The notes beneath the pieces are model-generated. The model was not told the origin of the DNA. It searched no databases and saw nothing but the letters and a program-made list of their open reading frames with translations. A program made the position numbers and the translations under genes. 5,867 bases of DNA from a virus (taxonomy: Duplodnaviria > Heunggongvirae > Uroviricota > Caudoviricetes): IMG/VR virus record IMGVR_UViG_2744054675_000002; one strand, given 5' to 3'. Positions 1-5,867 of this stretch are shown one piece after another. The first letter of the stretch is position 1. The number at the start of each line of letters is the position of its first letter.

Positions 1-539
1 TTAAATACTGCGGCACTCTCTCCAGAGTTAATAGCTGCAGATATCATGTCATAATTTGATATAAAATCATTTGGCGTGATTATTTCTGCGTTTTTATTGT
101 GCTGTGTTCTAAGTTTTGAATTTACATGAACACTTTTAACTGCAATACGGGAGTCGTCAACAAGTATTTCATTACCCTCTGTTGCTAACTCTTGTCTTAA
201 CTGATCCGGGTCATACTTCAGCACATTCGGAAAATAGAATTGCTGAGAACCATACGCATCATAAACAGCCATAGAATGGCCTTGCACAGTTACGAACTTG
301 GCAATCTGTCCGTTATATACCGGGTAACCAGCAGCGTTAATGATGATTGGTTGCGAAACAGGAACGTGAGAGCCGTCTTCATTCTCCACATAAACCTGAA
401 TCTGGTTTTCAGGATTTACCGGATCAGTGTCAATTTTACCGATATAAATTTTGCCATTGGCTACGGCTTTAAAAGAACGCGCCATAGTGAAGAGTTGCGA
501 AGGCATGCTGACCACAACATTGGCTGTAATGTCTGTCAT
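1..539 (-). CDS. Tailspike protein, N-terminal head-binding domain (P22 gp9-like); 5' partial, continues beyond the left window edge
   Basis: Hand translation of the minus strand from ATG at 539..537 gives [130 protein letters not shown]..., open to position 1 (about 179 codons). I recognise this as the conserved head-binding domain of P22/Sf6/HK620-type tailspikes. A GGAG Shine-Dalgarno lies about 8 nt upstream. It is missing from the supplied ORF track, presumably because no stop codon falls inside the window. Confidence 0.9.
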
Positions 540-596: not shown

Positions 597-620
597 TAAA
601 AAAACCCAGCCGAAGCTGGG
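597..620 (-). terminator. Rho-independent terminator between ant and the tailspike gene
   Basis: On the minus strand: CCCAGC-UUCG-GCUGGG (plus coords 605..620) followed directly by a U7 tract (plus-strand A-run 598..604). This is a GC-rich 6-bp stem with a UUCG tetraloop. The position matches the known terminator after ant in P22, which late transcription reads through to express the tailspike. Confidence 0.8.
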
Positions 621-639
621 TCGTTGCGTTGGTTATCTG

Positions 640-1542
640 TCAGTAGTTATGTACTGAAGGAGGTAATTCTTTATTCTTAAGTCTCATCCATGCGGAAAGA
701 TTCGTTGGTCCGTCTGGCTCATTGATATCAACATCTCGTGTGTGATTGATTAAAACGTCTCTCGCCATTCCGATAACATACGAGAACTCATGACCATAGT
801 CGTAGCATCTGCCGGAATAGTTCGATTGAATTTGTTTCAGCGCCGGATACAGTTCGCGGAATAATGCCTGTGAGCGGTTGGCATAATCCCATAACCATAC
901 AAGGCTGTTTACTTCTTTTGCAGAAAGCTCGTTGGTTTTCTTCTCTTGTTTGCTAATGAACTCACCTTCAAGCACTACCCTGTGGATGTACTCTACTGCT
1001 TGCGGTATCTGAGATGCATCAAGCTCTTCAATACTTTCCACATTGAAACGCTGATGAATCATTGCATAAGCTTCTGGGTACATTAGATGCTTTTTGCTGA
1101 CCAGCATATTTACAGCATCACGAAGCGGAGTCCTGTCATCAACAGATGTTTTCTTACGTGCATTTTCTGCCTTTCCCTTTGTCCAGTAGTCATGCAGCAC
1201 GGTAAAGCATTCTTCCTGGTACTGAATCAGTTTATCGCGGATGTCAGCACGAACTTTCTCAGGGTTGATGCTGAACAGCCATCCATTTAACTTCTTCAAA
1301 GGAAGGCAGAGTAGCTTACGAAGTTTCCCATCAGCGGCAACCATATTCATATGAATACAGTTGAACTTATCTAGTTGTTTCATAAGTTTTTGTTGCTGAG
1401 TACCCCAGCTCATTCCGAGGTTTTCAACGATTGGCTTCATCGCAACATATGCAACTCCGGCAGCCATGGCGGTGATAATCTGCTGACCATTGAAAGGTAC
1501 GTAAGAGGTGTTCACTGCTTCTAAAATTGCTATACTATTCAT
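640..1542 (-). CDS. ant: Antirepressor Ant (P22 immI-type), 300 aa
   Basis: ORF 640..1608 on the minus strand, but the codon at 1608 is TTG. The first ATG is at 1542..1540 ([21 protein letters not shown]...), with GGAG about 10 nt upstream, giving 300 aa. Size, position directly downstream of an Arc-like gene, and orientation toward the tailspike all match P22 ant. Confidence 0.85.
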
Positions 1543-1614
1543 GTTGGTTTTTCTCCACGGATTTACCGACAACCGAAGCCCTGACTGTTCCAGCAGTTGG
1601 GGCTTCAACTTTTT
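1543..1614 (+). ncRNA. sar: Candidate sar-like small antisense RNA, complementary to the ant RBS/start and the arc-ant intercistronic region
   Basis: Plus strand: extended -10 motif TGcTATACT at 1528..1536, inside the ant 5' coding region, which predicts a start near 1543. A hairpin follows at 1575..1606 (GAAGCCC / GGGCTTC core, extendable with G-U pairs, 6-nt loop), then AACTTTTTG at 1607..1615. The predicted transcript of about 70 nt matches the size and position of the P22 sar RNA. Ends are approximate. Confidence 0.5.
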
Positions 1615-1778
1615 GCTATATTACCTTTAGAACTATCCCGCCTTAAACTATCCACTAACCGCATTACCATCTCGGTATTTATTGAGCGACCATTTTCTTT
1701 CGCTGACTTCTCGATTGCTAACTTAACCTCTAATGGGATGCGCAAAGGGTACTTTGGTGCGTCTGACTTGACTATCAT
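1605..1778 (-). CDS. arc: Arc-family ribbon-helix-helix repressor, 57 aa
   Basis: Minus-strand ORF. The ATG at 1778..1776 is preceded by GGAGGT (revcomp of 1782..1787). Protein [57 protein letters not shown] has the N-terminal beta-strand plus helix pattern of P22 Arc (compare PQFNLRWPREV...ENGRSVNSEIY). The track ORF 1605..1793 begins at a TTG and is taken as an over-extension. Confidence 0.85.
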
Positions 1779-1866
1779 ATTACCTCCAATCAATTTGGTA
1801 TAACCGTTATACCATTGTGATCGCAGTGATGCAATAGTAATATCACCAAAATGCTATGGAGGTGGT
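1779..1866. promoter_or_regulatory. Divergent immI control region (Pant leftward, Pmnt rightward) with operators
   Basis: An 88-bp gap between divergent arc and mnt start codons. Candidate Pmnt on plus: -35 TTGTGA 1815..1820, 17-bp spacer, -10 TAATAT 1838..1843. Candidate Pant on minus: -35 TTGCAT (revcomp of 1829..1834), 17-bp spacer, -10 TATAAC (revcomp of 1806..1811). Promoter hexamers were assigned by eye and are tentative. Confidence 0.6.
1796..1814. promoter_or_regulatory. Perfect 19-bp palindromic operator TGGTATAAC-C-GTTATACCA (putative Mnt-type operator overlapping the Pant -10 and start)
   Basis: Nine-bp perfect inverted repeats around a central C, read directly from the sequence. 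It sits about 18 bp upstream of the arc start codon, overlapping the proposed Pant -10, analogous to O-mnt in P22. Confidence 0.6.
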
Positions 1867-2103
1867 ATGTCACGCGAAGAGCCGCAAATAAATATCAGGA
1901 TTTCCAAAGAGTTAAAGGCAAAGGTTAAAGCCAGGGCGCAACATAACAAGCGTTCCATGAATGCTGAAATAATACAGATTATCGAAGATGCTGTTTGTGG
2001 TAGATCGCTTAATAGCAATGAATTTGCTCAGAAAGAGGCTGACAAATTCAGGGATGCGCTGATTGAAACACTGAAAACCATGTATGGTAAGGATGCAAAA
2101 TGA
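1867..2103 (+). CDS. mnt: Mnt-family ribbon-helix-helix repressor, 78 aa
   Basis: ATG at 1867 with GGAGG at 1858..1862. Protein MSREEPQINIRISKELKAKVKARAQHNKRSMNAEIIQIIEDAV... matches the P22 Mnt N-terminal pattern (compare ...FNFRMPMEVREKLKFRAEANGRSMNSELLQIVQDAL). It is divergent from arc-ant, as in P22 immI. Confidence 0.85.
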   Translation: MSREEPQINIRISKELKAKVKARAQHNKRSMNAEIIQIIEDAVCGRSLNSNEFAQKEADKFRDALIETLKTMYGKDAK

Positions 2104-2309
2104 ATAAAAAACAGTTTATTAAGTCAAAAACATCAAGCAAGGAAGAGCTAGAGAAAGAGCTAAACTCCCTGAAATATGCTCTGTGTCTGGTTTACTCAAG
2201 ACTGCCAATGGAAGATAAAAACGCTATTTACAATGAAATGATTAGCAGCCTTGATTTTAACGATAGAGACCTAGCATCCCACCTCAACAGCTTCCGCGTC
2301 CCTGAGTAA
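2100..2309 (+). CDS. Hypothetical small protein (69 aa), translationally coupled to mnt
   Basis: The ATG at 2100 overlaps the mnt stop in an ATGA arrangement, with AAGGA 6 nt upstream. The protein is hydrophilic and probably helical, with no family I recognise. The region looks AT-rich by eye. Confidence 0.5.
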   Translation: MNKKQFIKSKTSSKEELEKELNSLKYALCLVYSRLPMEDKNAIYNEMISSLDFNDRDLASHLNSFRVPE

Positions 2310-2469
2310 TTCTGTTGCGGATTTGCTTCTTGCGGTGGTTTAGGCTGGAGAGCTTGGCTTCTGCTTCCGATATTTGCGCATCCAGATCTTTAAGTTCAAG
2401 ATCTGAAAGTCGCTGGTCAAGCAGGGTTTGATTCAACTCGATGTTGTTCAGGCGTTCTTCTATGGTCAT
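2284..2469 (-). CDS. Hypothetical coiled-coil-like small protein (61 aa)
   Basis: ATG at 2469..2467 with AAGGTAA upstream (revcomp of about 2476..2482). Codon choice looks coding-like (CTG, CGC, AAC, ATC). The protein has heptad-like hydrophobic spacing and a basic C-terminus. It lies in late-operon orientation and overlaps the 3' end of the 69-aa ORF by 26 bp, so it is uncertain. Confidence 0.35.
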   Translation of the reverse strand: MTIEERLNNIELNQTLLDQRLSDLELKDLDAQISEAEAKLSSLNHRKKQIRNRITQGRGSC

Positions 2470-2494
2470 ATTATTACCTTAGTGGGAGATTGGT

Positions 2495-2794
2495 GTGAAG
2501 CGATGGGTTATAGGTGCATTCTGTTTTCTAATTAGTGGTCTTGCACAATCGCAAGATAAGGATCTGAAATTTGCTAACGACATGTTAGTTACAGCTAAAG
2601 TTGCTGGTATGTGTGGAACATTTAAACAAATGTTTGCTTTTCAAGAAGCAACACAGATGCCCGGCGGAGATGAATTTATTGAACGTTTTTTGAATACGGA
2701 AATTTCTCGCCTAGGAATGTCACTTCAAGAGTTCATGAAGTTGTGCACAGATTCTATAGAGTCATACAATAAATTAAAAAGGATGTCAGAATAG
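2495..2794 (+). CDS. Hypothetical secreted/periplasmic small protein (99 aa) with N-terminal signal peptide
   Basis: GTG start at 2495 with GGGAG at 2484..2488 (6-nt spacer). The N-terminus MKRWVIGAFCFLISGLAQSQ has a basic n-region, hydrophobic core and a likely signal peptidase I site after GLA. There is no lipobox. The mature part of about 79 aa has two Cys. The gene is AT-rich. Confidence 0.6.
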   Translation: MKRWVIGAFCFLISGLAQSQDKDLKFANDMLVTAKVAGMCGTFKQMFAFQEATQMPGGDEFIERFLNTEISRLGMSLQEFMKLCTDSIESYNKLKRMSE

Positions 2795-2808
2795 CCATCC
2801 ATGGCTAT
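2791..2808. repeat. 18-bp palindrome ATAGCCAT-CC-ATGGCTAT straddling the stop codon of the 99-aa ORF
   Basis: Eight-bp perfect inverted-repeat arms with a 2-bp centre, read directly from the sequence. Function unknown (protein-binding site or RNA hairpin). Confidence 0.4.
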
Positions 2809-2820
2809 CGGGAGGTTAAT

Positions 2821-2889
2821 ATGGTAACAGTCGGTTGGATTATTGTTGCCCTGCTTGTTGCTCTGTGGGCAAAGAATCGTTACTACTGA
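2821..2889 (+). CDS. Candidate 22-aa hydrophobic micro-protein ([22 protein letters not shown])
   Basis: ATG at 2821 preceded by GGGAGG at 2810..2815 (5-nt spacer), 26 nt after the 99-aa ORF stop. It encodes a single predicted transmembrane helix with a basic/aromatic tail. Caveat: 50 bp overlap the antisense of the Gln-rich 3' end of the gp16-like gene, which biases toward Leu/Val codons. Confidence 0.25.
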   Translation: MVTVGWIIVALLVALWAKNRYY

Positions 2890-5008
2890 GAAAAGCGATA
2901 ATACCAACGCGGGCTAGATTTTTCTTCTCGTCCGCTGATAGCGTATTTACCCAATCCCTATATGGTTTCACTTTCTGCATTGAAGCATCCACCGATTTCC
3001 TAGATGCTGGGGTGCTGGCGTGACCTGCGGCAATCCTTTTTGAGAGATTTTTAAAAGCCGGAGATGCTATTAATTCATCAGCGGCAGCCATTCTTGAATT
3101 TTTACCAGAACGGAGGAGGCTAAAGAGTACCCCTGCCGTACCGGCTCCAGGCGCTCCGATGGCTGTGGTTAGCCCTTCTGCTTTAGCCACGTCTTTTCCT
3201 ATTCCATATATACGCCCAAGCATTCCCTTCTCTCCTGCGAACTGATTCATCATCCGGTCAATTTGAGAGGAGGAATACACCTTCTCGCTGCCCACCCTTT
3301 GCATGCCAGAAGCCACCTCATAGATGTTTCTCAACCTACGCGTAGCCTGATAGCCAATTGCCCGGCTCAATGCCTGCATATTTGATTTGTTTCTTGATAG
3401 CCCTCCATACCACTTAACAAATCCAGGAACACCAAGTGACTGCCCGGGAGATTTAGCGAACGTAGTGAAAGCCCTATTCATTGCGGTGGCAACAGCTGGT
3501 TGCACCATGTCATCAGGAAGATTTGAAACTAGGCGACGGAAATCACCGCCCTTTCCTTGAGACATATCGACGATAGCTTGCTGTAATTGCGGCACTATTC
3601 CTTTATCCAAGTCTCTGCCAAGATTTTGAACAGCGGCTGCCTGCACTGCGAATCTCTTTCTCCCGATCTCTCTAGCTAAATTCCATGTATCCTCTGCACC
3701 ATATTTGGCAGCAGCGGCTCCCTGATCTTTTATCAGTGCGCTTTCAATAATTCCAAGGTGCCGAGCGTCGATGCCGCTATATGGCCCTTTATCCATCTCT
3801 TTGCCAAGAGCCCTTCCAACCTGCCGTCGAACTGCATCAAGAAGACCATAAGTCGGGGCGGTGTTTGGGTCTATTTGTTCCAAGGTCTTTGACAGTTGAG
3901 GATATAGCGATTTTAGTTTTTCCAGCCCACCGACATCATCTGCAATATCCTCAATGGCGTTAGTGGTATGGGTGGTATCTACGGTAGCTCTTGTTGGAAT
4001 TTTTGCTCTAATTTGATTGTATAGAGTGTCTTCTTGGCGCTTCAGGTTTGATCTTAACTCCTCATAAGAGCTTTTGACCTTTTGATTGATAAAGTCCTTA
4101 TCAACGCTCCCACCAAAATCATTAATAAATTTATCTGCCTGCTCTCCAAGCCTACTAATGGCCTCTCGCTGTGCGTGGAACAGTTTATTCCCTGGGGTTG
4201 CAGCTAAAGCATTTTCAAACGCGCGGTAAGAAGGGTTGCTGGAGTACATGCCGGGAGTTAAGGCATCCTCCATCCCAAGATTGCGGGCGGCCTGTAGCAC
4301 AGAATCATCTGGTGAAACAGCTTCCGCGAGAGCATTTAAACCAGATCTGTTTCCTGTTATTGGATTCACATCTGTAGCTTTCGTTGCAACCCTCGCCATT
4401 CCACTAAGTTCAGATGCCTGAGACATTTCTGCCGATGGAGGCCTAAACCTCTTCGTAACCGCACTGGCTGCTTTGCTAATCACTGGAGATGCCAATTCAG
4501 CAATTGGACCAGCGGCAGCACCTATAGCCGCCCCTGTAGTTACATTGCCACCGGTTCCGTTAGCAACAACACCACCTTCAACCGCACCAAGCCCTGCGGC
4601 GGCAGCCAGCCTTGCCGCCCCTTTCGGAACCTGAGAAATAATCCCACCACCACTAACAAATGGCGCTGCTTGTCCAACAAACTCACCAACATCTTGTGCG
4701 GTTGATGGTTTTGCCGCTAACTTCTGCTGTAGAGACTGAATTGCGGCTTGCTCTTCTGGTGTCATATCCTGAAACAGGCCAACACCTTTACCAACATCCA
4801 TCAATCCACTGAGAACGCCATACATAAAACGGTCGAAACCGTTAGCATTATTAACAACATTTTCCTGTCTGGAATTTTCCTCTGGTGAAACCAAAGGAGA
4901 TTGCTGCTGTTCTGGTTGGGAATCAAGCACAAAGCCATCAGGAAGTTGTGAGTTATCAGGCTGTTCATCCAGAACAAACCCCTCTGGTAAACCTACATTG
5001 GTTGCCAT
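2840..5008 (-). CDS. Ejection (DNA-transfer/injection) protein, P22 gp16-like, 722 aa
   Basis: Long minus-strand ORF with ATG at 5008 and AGGA about 7 nt upstream. It is the last late-operon gene before the immI region, which is the position of gene 16 in P22-like genomes. It has a Gly/Ala-rich segment and a hydrophobic stretch near the N-terminus. The family assignment comes from synteny and composition, not from a verified alignment. Confidence 0.7.
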
Positions 5009-5867
5009 TGTCCGTTCCTGTAAATAATTTTCTGACCAGTTTTAGGATTTTTCGCGGTCATACCTTCTCGAAATGTTTGACCGCCAGATGTTGCTTGTTG
5101 TGTCTGTTGTTGCGCAGGCTGCTGAATATCTTCATACAGCTTGGCTTTTCTGGATTGCAATTGCTTAGTTAGTCCGCTGGGGAGAGAATCTCCATAAGTT
5201 GAAAGATAATCATCCATTTGCTGATTAAACTTTTCGCCTTCAGTATTTGCCATCAGTTTTGAGGTGTTGATTAAGTCTTGGACTTGCTCATTATTCAGCA
5301 TCTTGCCGTTAGATAATTGGCTAACATAGTTACCAAGTGTGCCGAATATTCCATCAGTGCGTTTTACCTGCACTTGCTCACCTTCGCGTACCACAGATTG
5401 CGGATCCAGCGATTTCATATAGTTGAAAATCATTCCCAACTGTGCGGCTGGAGTGTTGCGCTTACCAAGGGCTTGTAGGTTGTCAGCAGCACTGCGCATT
5501 GCAGAATAATTCTTTGAGAACCCATTAATATCACTATTCAGATTTCGAACAAGTTTTGGGTCAATCTTTCCGCTTTCCTGTTGTTTCATCCCTAATTCCT
5601 GCAACTTCAGGGCTACGTTATCATTATGCATTTGTGCCCGCTGAGCCCTGTCTAGTTGAGCGTTTTGGATATTTGCCCATCCTCTCGCGTTCTCCATGTC
5701 AGCCTGACGGATGCTTTCATCCAATCGCCCTTTCTCAAGTTGGCGACCAACCATCTTATCCTGATAATCCAGCATTTTATCCGGACCAACAGCCCCTAGC
5801 GTCATAGTAGTCAGCATGTGTGATAGCTGCTCTGGATTCTGGATACCTGTCTGAATCATCCAGTCAG
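4993..5867 (-). CDS. Ejection protein, P22 gp20-like; 3' portion, N-terminus lies beyond the right window edge
   Basis: The minus-strand frame is open from the window edge (codons upstream of the ATG at 5859 remain open) to the TAG at 4995..4993. It overlaps the start of the gp16-like gene by 16 bp, which is typical late-operon packing. The product call is by synteny only. Confidence 0.6.

Follow-up and report, generated by a model that had tools for sequence, protein, structure and literature searches.

In P22-like phages, the ant moron sits within the late operon, and polymerase that has initiated at PLate crosses it en route to the tailspike gene. The genes of this moron are mostly expressed independently of the late message and their flux is rapid, with ten types found in sixteen genomes (PMC2629481; phage L genome paper). 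In the RefSeq record of P22, the GTG start codon of sieA is separated by 30 nt from an unannotated, back-to-back ORF of 121 aa on the late strand, which carries an HExxH motif and occupies the position of the gene called hkcC in the literature (the hits for 'hkcC' in a full-text search were all unrelated acronyms). This ORF extends into the mnt terminator, and its convergent neighbour is orf59a, with which the mnt operon ends. A putative promoter, PsieA, is annotated within the first ~10 codons of this late-strand ORF. The sieA gene with 85 bp of upstream sequence, including putative PsieA, sufficed for exclusion, and sieA transcription is low in the lysogen and raised on induction (PMC10461980).

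An established mechanism is that of overlapping transcription units whose expression is mutually exclusive (PMC7154746, PMC12288877). The locus described here resembles excludons and noncontiguous operons, since orf61 is embedded between the opposite-strand genes mnt-orf69 and orf99 (PMC7154746, PMC11034616, PMC12288877) and since read-through on either strand would produce fully complementary RNAs. However, the excludon class is defined by mapped overlapping transcripts and by reciprocal expression that depends on RNase III or on interference, and of the present arrangement it is the gene layout that is compatible with this class. Furthermore, the two strands are probably used here in different phases of the life cycle, unlike those of a steady-state switch.

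Gene layout and P22-like setting

The window (the whole stretch of 5,867 nt that was analysed, from IMG/VR record IMGVR_UViG_2744054675_000002) is, judging from its gene content, the immI or "ant moron" region of a P22-like (Lederbergvirus) prophage. The gene order on the minus strand is gp20/gp16-like injection genes, orf61, arc, ant and the tailspike gene, and the plus strand carries sar, mnt, orf69 and orf99. The injection genes comprise a fragment of a gp20-type injection translocase gene (4993..5859; Pfam Inj_translocase) and, upstream of orf61, an ORF of 722 aa (2840..5008) in the position of P22 gene 16, which encodes an injection protein; this assignment is based on the gp20 gene upstream and on relatives that carry a Phage_P22_gp16 match at the same place. 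On the same strand are found an arc-like repressor gene (1605..1793 as listed; Pfam Arc domain, E 3e-12), whose true start is probably the ATG at 1778, the ant antirepressor gene (640..1608 as listed; Pfam P22_AR_N, E 9e-45, and P22_AR_C, E 7e-30) and the 5' part of the tailspike gene, encoding its head-binding domain (3..539; Pfam Head_binding, E 3e-68). Between these last two genes, the terminator scan detected an intrinsic terminator (603..622, minus strand), the counterpart of the one annotated after ant in P22. On the plus strand, the sar antisense RNA (1543..1610; Rfam RF00262, 91.8 bits, gathering score 43) has its terminator at 1575-1606 according to the same type of scan, and a gene encoding a mnt-like ribbon-helix-helix repressor (1867..2103; Pfam Arc PF03869, E 6e-13) is the first of the plus-strand unit. 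Hence, mnt, arc, ant and sar are all present (two Pfam Arc genes, P22_AR_N/C and the Rfam sar match). The region lies between the gene 16 homologue and the tailspike gene on the axis of the late operon, with a flanking order that is constant wherever it was detected. Gene content is strongly variable: over 62 loci, the convergent partners of orf61 fall into four classes, and so do the junctions upstream of it.

Three small genes listed in the ORF table are interlocked in this region. The second gene of the mnt operon, orf69 (2100..2309, plus strand, ATG start, 69 aa; PHROG 16466, E 5e-51), overlaps the mnt stop codon by an ATGA motif (2100-2103). It converges on orf61 (2284..2469, minus strand, ATG start, 61 aa; PHROG 7586, E 3e-44), and the two genes share 26 nt at their 3' ends (2284..2309), both stop codons included. 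On its other side, orf61 lies back-to-back with orf99 (2495..2794, plus strand, GTG start, 99 aa; PHROG 19844, E 3e-27). The 25 nt that separate the two start codons (2470..2494) contain both Shine-Dalgarno (SD) sites: TAAGGT for orf61 (2481..2476, minus strand), 6 nt before the ATG at 2469, and GGGAG for orf99 (2484..2488, plus strand), 6 nt before the GTG at 2495. This anatomy had been described exactly by an earlier reading of the sequence alone (hereafter the sequence-only reading), as regards the overlap, the distance between the start codons and the presence of an SD for each start.

Among sequenced phages, the Lederbergviruses Kapi1 and Emek are the closest. Kapi1 is 98.7% identical over most of positions 1800-2900, with about 250 bp inserted between orf61 and orf99. 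Both phage records annotate orf69 and orf61, with an overlap identical to that of the window. Moreover, in a 99% identical prophage from the chromosome of an E. coli O20:H12 strain, all three genes are called by RefSeq/PGAP and are interlocked as in the window.

Compared with P22, the interlocked genes occupy the same position, between gene 16 and the mnt-arc-ant-sar-gene 9 block. A prophage-expressed gene in P22, and a probably prophage-expressed one in the window, is back-to-back with an ORF on the late strand; this ORF in turn faces the 3' end of the gene with which the mnt operon finishes, and relatives of the window have orf61 located 25-27 nt from a real sieA. Thus, orf99 corresponds to the sieA slot, orf61 to the slot of the late-strand ORF and orf69 to that of orf59a; no sequence similarity was found between these proteins and SieA, the 121-aa ORF and orf59a of P22, respectively. 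The two loci differ at the convergent junction, which in P22 consists of the mnt terminator and a 13-nt gap but in the window is a 26-nt coding overlap with no conserved terminator. The interlocked layout is an ordinary and recurrent organisation of the P22-like ant moron and not a new kind of switch. For P22-like phages, this means that late-strand genes alternating with prophage-expressed ones can be viewed as the normal organisation of the ant moron.

Coding status and conservation of the overlapping genes

The sequence-only reading had considered that, unless both strands are expressed, one of the overlapping ORFs is not real, and had proposed to search for the frame under purifying selection. 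The orf61 sample consisted of 64 IMG/VR loci and three diverged loci from the protein database, partner and junction counts being based on 62 loci, and the orf69 sample comprised 38 loci recovered via orf69 and five diverged loci. Both frames turned out to be selected, each having by far the lowest pN/pS of the six frames, and the idea that one of them is spurious is refuted by values close to 0.09 for orf61 and 0.07 for orf69. For orf61, pN/pS was 0.090 in its own frame against 0.25-3.1 in the other five (43 distinct DNA sequences), and the variable sites within codons were at the third position in 27/43 cases. For orf69, the ratio was 0.066 overall and 0.058 outside the overlap (17 distinct sequences), with 13 of 18 variable sites at codon position 3. 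Since nearly all variable sites are outside the overlap (39/41 for orf61 and 16/18 for orf69), neither selection signal is a shadow of the other gene.

Conservation extends to distant relatives. When orf61 was compared with relatives at 72-76% nucleotide identity, pS reached ~0.65 and pN only 0.12-0.18, and its length of 61 aa was retained down to ~75% identity. Damage to orf61 was found in only two of the 64 loci: a 5' truncation in one of them and, in the other, a change of the start codon from ATG to ACG, with an in-frame ATG three codons upstream. Homologues of orf69 at 69-84% identity keep both its length and its C-terminal tail; one of them, from a Serratia prophage, had not been called as a gene.

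It could be objected that orf61 or orf69 is a chance antisense open frame that is not translated. Indeed, both ORFs are short, lack functional annotation and fall below every curated cut-off of Pfam and NCBIfam, and one or the other goes uncalled by some gene callers (orf61 in loci L111, L112 and L114, orf69 in locus L068). We find this hardly credible, as own-frame pN/pS is at most 0.09 for each gene versus 0.16 to 11 in the other frames, relatives at 72-81% identity retain length and sequence, the synonymous sites of orf61 being near saturation, an SD is found at every type of junction and, as mentioned above, the variable sites are almost all located outside the overlap. The low own-frame ratios, the RefSeq/PGAP calls and the recurrence in diverged relatives indicate that neither ORF is a chance frame. 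Sequence comparison thus establishes the coding status of the pair, and orf61, orf69 and orf99 are all, on this type of evidence, protein-coding genes. Both overlapping short ORFs can therefore be annotated as real genes in a prophage family that is common in E. coli, Salmonella and Serratia.

The orf61 family (PHROG 7586) is narrow and has members only in P22-like prophages of Enterobacterales. When 1.84 billion representatives were searched by profile for remote relatives, nine proteins came up, all from the same family, and a scan of GTDB genomes with degenerate patterns matched 555 stretches, none of which was confirmed by tblastn. Searches for a function by homology in Pfam, NCBIfam and PADLOC and by profile against the PDB gave only coiled-coil noise. 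The AlphaFold2 model of the protein is a single helix (residues 3-59, pLDDT 94) followed by last residues of low pLDDT. The N-terminal half, EERLxxIELNQTLLDQRLSDLELKDLDAQIS, is almost invariant while the underlying synonymous sites vary freely, hence the constraint acts at the protein level. This suggests that the predicted helix may have a specific binding partner. Charged and polar residues are abundant in the 61-aa sequence and no membrane-spanning hydrophobic stretch is evident in it by eye.

Some longer calls of this gene (89-92 aa, extended at the N-terminus) carry the name "haemolysin XhlA family" in RefSeq and in Kapi1, the extension being found at the Kapi1-type junction only. Like XhlA, orf61 is short, helical and coiled-coil-like. 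However, an assignment to XhlA (PF10779) was rejected, since the 61-aa form scored 14.1 bits, below the cut-off of 34.7, and no match was obtained with the longer form of 92 aa. The haemolysin label on the longer call is thus unfounded.

The orf69 product is modelled by AlphaFold2 as three helices (pLDDT 77) and looks soluble by eye; searches for a known fold gave no significant sequence match in the PDB and no Foldseek match. The N-terminus of orf99 has a signal-peptide-like hydrophobic stretch, in agreement with DeepTMHMM signal-peptide notes in the Kapi1 record, and orf99 is apparently a small secreted protein, as predicted from its sequence. No relative of known function and no PDB match were found for orf99. 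It has a paralogue (47% identical) in the mnt operon of other phages, and the pN/pS of the group is 0.05. Similarity to P22 SieA was not detected (BLASTP E = 0.98), the two genes sharing only their slot, leader and GTG start. In two loci (L016 and L040), a P22-type PsieA leader directly precedes orf99 and the same GTG is used, which indicates that orf99 is a replacement of sieA in the sieA slot.

Module edges, promoters and use of the two strands

Four types of junction are found upstream of orf61. In 20 of the 62 loci, an intrinsic terminator (CCCACCGTCAGGTGGG and a T-run) is followed by AAGGAG and the ATG. The window-type back-to-back junction of 25 nt is found in 17 loci, a junction of 33 nt with a 60-aa ORF encoding an apparently secreted protein (Kapi1 type) in 13, and an 11-codon remnant of a signal-peptide gene in the last 12. 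The partners at window-type junctions are orf99, a gene encoding a 74-aa membrane protein and others with signal-peptide-like or hydrophobic N-termini. A common junction block, CTCCCACTAAGG, is shared by loci that differ in their divergent partner gene, and a locus with ~24% nucleotide divergence (L069) has a related junction, CTCCCATTAAGG, adjoining sieA. In diverged relatives, orf61 is 23-30 nt from SieA, from ORFs of 107/108 aa or from ORFs of 149/153 aa. Overall, back-to-back junctions of 23-33 nt recur with at least eight partner genes, mostly encoding secreted or membrane proteins, SieA included. The exact arrangement of the window (orf69, orf61 and orf99 25 nt away) is rare; it was encountered in two IMG/VR loci and, among 5426 complete E. 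coli genomes, in three. A junction of exactly the window type is present in E. coli Res13-Lact-PEB17-18.

Megablast matches in E. coli start at position 2284 or at 2275-2278 of the window and end at 2470, 2481 or 2498. These ends indicate that orf61 and its SD move as a module whose edges are the SD and the stop codon. Upstream of orf61, sequence conservation stops after about 12-30 nt. Modularity and conservation of the layout are in this way demonstrated by comparison between loci, and in this region, whose genes are in rapid flux, orf61 is the most constant one. Furthermore, orf61 has the same direction as the homologues of gp16, ant or the tailspike gene wherever any of these was detected, both among the IMG/VR loci anchored on orf61 and in the three diverged loci.

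According to the sequence-only reading, expression of both orf61 and orf99 would require that each promoter lies inside the other gene. A precedent exists for the plus-strand gene only, namely PsieA in P22 and the leader found in L016 and L040. For orf61, a promoter inside orf99 is not needed, since polymerase that has started at PLate reads through the late-operon strand, where this gene lies (PMC2629481). Moreover, in the 20 loci where the terminator abuts the SD of orf61, there is no room for a promoter, which implies expression by read-through in these loci. In agreement with this, the search for minus-strand terminators from the start of the gene 16 homologue (5008) to the ant stop codon (640) detected only weak hairpins of 6-7 bp inside coding sequence, and none between 2840 and 640. 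On the plus strand, no conserved terminator or structure was found between orf69 and orf99.

The promoter scan found no plus-strand consensus match of at least 9/12 inside orf61; the same scan also misses Psar, Pant and Pmnt. Since it misses these immI promoters and gives fewer matches than shuffled sequence (six promoter-like matches in the window versus 9.7 expected), it is uninformative about positions. A plus-strand candidate read by hand, TTGTTC-17-CATATT (2444-2472), matches at 7/12 and is not conserved in diverged relatives. Suppressed synonymous variation, which would be a sign of an embedded promoter, was not found at the 5' end of orf61, where sites vary freely between diverged relatives.

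The best promoter-like match of the window is on the minus strand (2499..2470, TTCACA-18-AATAAT, 10/12). It might suggest that orf61 is expressed in the prophage from a promoter of its own, located within the 5' part of the gene divergent to it, the junction being a bidirectional promoter core active in lysogens, and the recurrence of 23-33 nt back-to-back junctions with many partners would fit such a core. However, the -10 of this match ends one base before the ATG, so that a transcript would start inside the ORF and the match cannot serve orf61. The 20 loci in which a terminator abuts the SD have no divergent gene, conservation of the upstream sequence extends over only about 12-30 nt and promoter-like matches in the window are below the number obtained with shuffled sequence. 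An own promoter active in lysogens is thus quite unlikely.

We consider it probable that orf61, orf69 and orf99 are three real accessory genes of a hypervariable ant moron, that the two strands are separated by phase and that the tight packing results from module exchange. Orf61 would be translated from the late transcript, synthesized by a Q/gp23-modified polymerase on its way from PLate through this region to the tailspike gene; it would use its own SD, with no promoter of its own where the flanks allow this to be seen. Orf69 would be translationally coupled to mnt and made together with Mnt in the lysogen. Transcription of orf99 in the lysogen would start from a weak PsieA-like promoter in the first codons of orf61 or would result from read-through from Pmnt across orf61 in antisense. 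The plus strand would therefore be used mainly during lysogeny and the minus strand mainly during late lytic growth, and we infer both this timing and the promoter positions by analogy with P22. As the genes are interlocked, the transcripts of the two strands are antisense to each other. With strands used in different phases of the life cycle, the simultaneous collision envisaged by the sequence-only reading would not occur and would be no obstacle to expression of both genes. Late read-through would automatically yield RNA antisense to the prophage genes, as a by-product. The packing itself may come from module exchange at gene boundaries, orf61 and its SD travelling as a unit.

Association between orf61 and orf69

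All 43 orf69-bearing loci (38 from IMG/VR and the five diverged loci, L111-L115), including lineages that are ~25% diverged, carry orf61 and the 26-nt overlap. The reverse does not hold. Among the 62 orf61 loci, 38 have orf69 as convergent partner with the 26-nt overlap, 11 have the paralogue of orf99, as last gene of the mnt operon, at a 9-nt gap, nine have an ORF of 178 aa at a 77-nt gap and four have something else. Hence, 24 loci have orf61 without orf69, and in L069 orf61 is kept while orf69 is reduced to a 25-aa remnant.

The changes seen within the overlap in diverged relatives are conservative for the orf69 tail (LNSFRVPE; V>I, S>T) and radical for the orf61 tail (ITQGRGSC; G>E, R>C). 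These radical changes and the low confidence of the model at this end indicate that orf69 ends inside a tolerant tail of orf61. An imperfect hairpin can be folded across this region (2279-2338, -27.2 kcal/mol, z = -2.4). In an alignment of six sequences, four of which cover the full hairpin, it was not kept in diverged relatives and showed no covariation.

The sequence-only reading had compared the pair with toxin-antitoxin (TA) modules, and there is a likeness in the small adjacent genes, the overlap on opposite strands and the mobile-element setting. This comparison is not supported, since orf61, orf69 and orf99 matched no TA or defence family in Pfam, NCBIfam or PADLOC and since orf61 is so often found without orf69. 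Unlike the co-transcribed partners of type II TA systems, which belong to known families, the window genes converge; the constant association of partners expected for such systems is seen from orf69 to orf61 only. As for type I systems, whose toxins are short hydrophobic membrane peptides, neither protein is a small hydrophobic toxin, orf61 being predicted as a helix rich in charged and polar residues and orf69 as a three-helix protein.

Mosaicism by pure chance does not predict that orf69 is always found with orf61 or that the overlap is fixed at 26 nt, and this hints at a functional or regulatory link. Orf61 and orf69 could thus form a functional two-gene unit, either an excludon-like or noncontiguous-operon switch or a pair of antagonistic proteins. 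In the switch version, the 3' overlap or antisense read-through would make expression of lysogenic mnt-orf69 and of late-strand orf61 mutually exclusive, for which, as mentioned above, there is an established mechanism. In the antagonist version, one protein would be made in the prophage and its antidote made late. The identical overlap in all 43 loci, which extends to proteins of 69-81% identity and to Serratia, and the conservation of both tails within the overlap are in favor of such a unit. However, it is rather unlikely that the two genes work together, given the 24 orf61 loci without orf69, which have unrelated convergent partners at gaps of 9 or 77 nt, the locus that keeps orf61 with only a remnant of orf69, the absence of a TA or defence match and the hairpin that is not conserved across the overlap. 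Moreover, the constant length of the overlap may reflect common descent of a single junction.

A more specific proposal, which we regard as very unlikely, is that orf69 and orf61 are a dedicated convergent module that couples the mnt operon to the late operon, the constant 26-nt overlap being selected and not inherited by chance. In such a module, orf61 would be silenced by transcription running from Pmnt through orf69, and mnt-orf69 together with the gene in the sieA slot by late read-through. The nearly invariant N-terminal helix of orf61 would, instead or as well, neutralise the product of orf69, or else a host factor, when lysogeny gives way to lysis. Should the linkage between orf61 and orf69 prove functional, it would represent a compact natural case of lysogenic and late lytic expression being coupled through strand overlap.

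Divergent gene pairs in P22 and in a related locus

P22 carries a 121-aa late-strand ORF that is unannotated in its RefSeq record (NC_002371, positions 13861-14226 on the plus strand, corresponding to 4862-5227 of locus L071). This ORF encodes an HExxH motif and lies at the position where the literature places hkcC. It is arranged back-to-back with sieA, the two genes being 30 nt apart, and the annotated PsieA promoter is located inside its first 10 codons. The same 121-aa ORF is also found in another related locus, L057, which harbors two tandem divergent pairs (2153-3186). The first one consists of a small membrane-protein gene located back-to-back, at 30 nt, with the 121-aa ORF of the hkcC slot, and the second one of a 74-aa membrane-protein gene located back-to-back, at 25 nt, with orf61, the 61-aa late-strand ORF. 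These tandem pairs indicate that the unit made of a prophage gene and a late-strand gene can be repeated.

Convergent overlaps

In the diverged relative L069, orf69, the second gene of the mnt operon, is reduced to a remnant of 25 aa (MEMSNRFKISDKDLASHLNRFRAPE; 5161-5240, on the minus strand of that locus). This remnant is preceded by a strong SD (AAGGAGG) and retains the 26-nt overlap with the stop of orf61. A second convergent overlap occurs in the window, where the 722-aa gene (stop at 2840) shares 50 nt of its 3' end with a candidate hydrophobic ORF of 22 aa (2821-2889, plus strand) that follows orf99. Conservation of this candidate ORF is seen only jointly with the 722-aa gene.

Annotation and internal features of orf61

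The 'XhlA' of Kapi1 (L001, 3953-4231) and the 'hemolysin XhlA family protein' of RefSeq hits H23-H33 are N-terminally extended calls of orf61 (89-92 aa) that overlap the divergent 60-aa gene. The XhlA identity of these extended calls is without Pfam support. A 58-aa protein from E. coli (P0040) is a fusion in which the first 28 residues of orf61 are followed by the ~30 C-terminal residues of Ant, and looks like the product of a deletion extending from the middle of orf61 through the end of ant.

A near-perfect palindrome (2383-2405; CAGATCTTTAA / TTCAAGATCTG) is located within the most conserved part of orf61, a segment that encodes SDLELKDLD. It is probably incidental, since one of its arms is variable in close relatives and diverged ones lack the palindrome altogether.

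Elements around arc, mnt and ant

In the window, the immI antisense RNA sar is intact (1543-1610, plus strand; 91.8 bits to Rfam RF00262), and its terminator occupies 1575-1606. As is the case in P22, sar overlaps the boundary of arc and ant. The starts of arc and mnt flank an imperfect inverted repeat of 21 nt (1784-1826), at the site where P22 has the overlapping Pant and Pmnt promoters and the Arc and Mnt operators.

In Kapi1, an HNH endonuclease gene (L001, 1787-2287) is located between ant and the tailspike gene; this gene is missing from the window. The interval from the ant stop (640) to the tailspike ATG (539) of the window contains a strong intrinsic terminator on the minus strand (603-622, with a T-run extending to 598). 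It is the counterpart of the post-ant terminator of P22, through which the late antiterminated polymerase must read.
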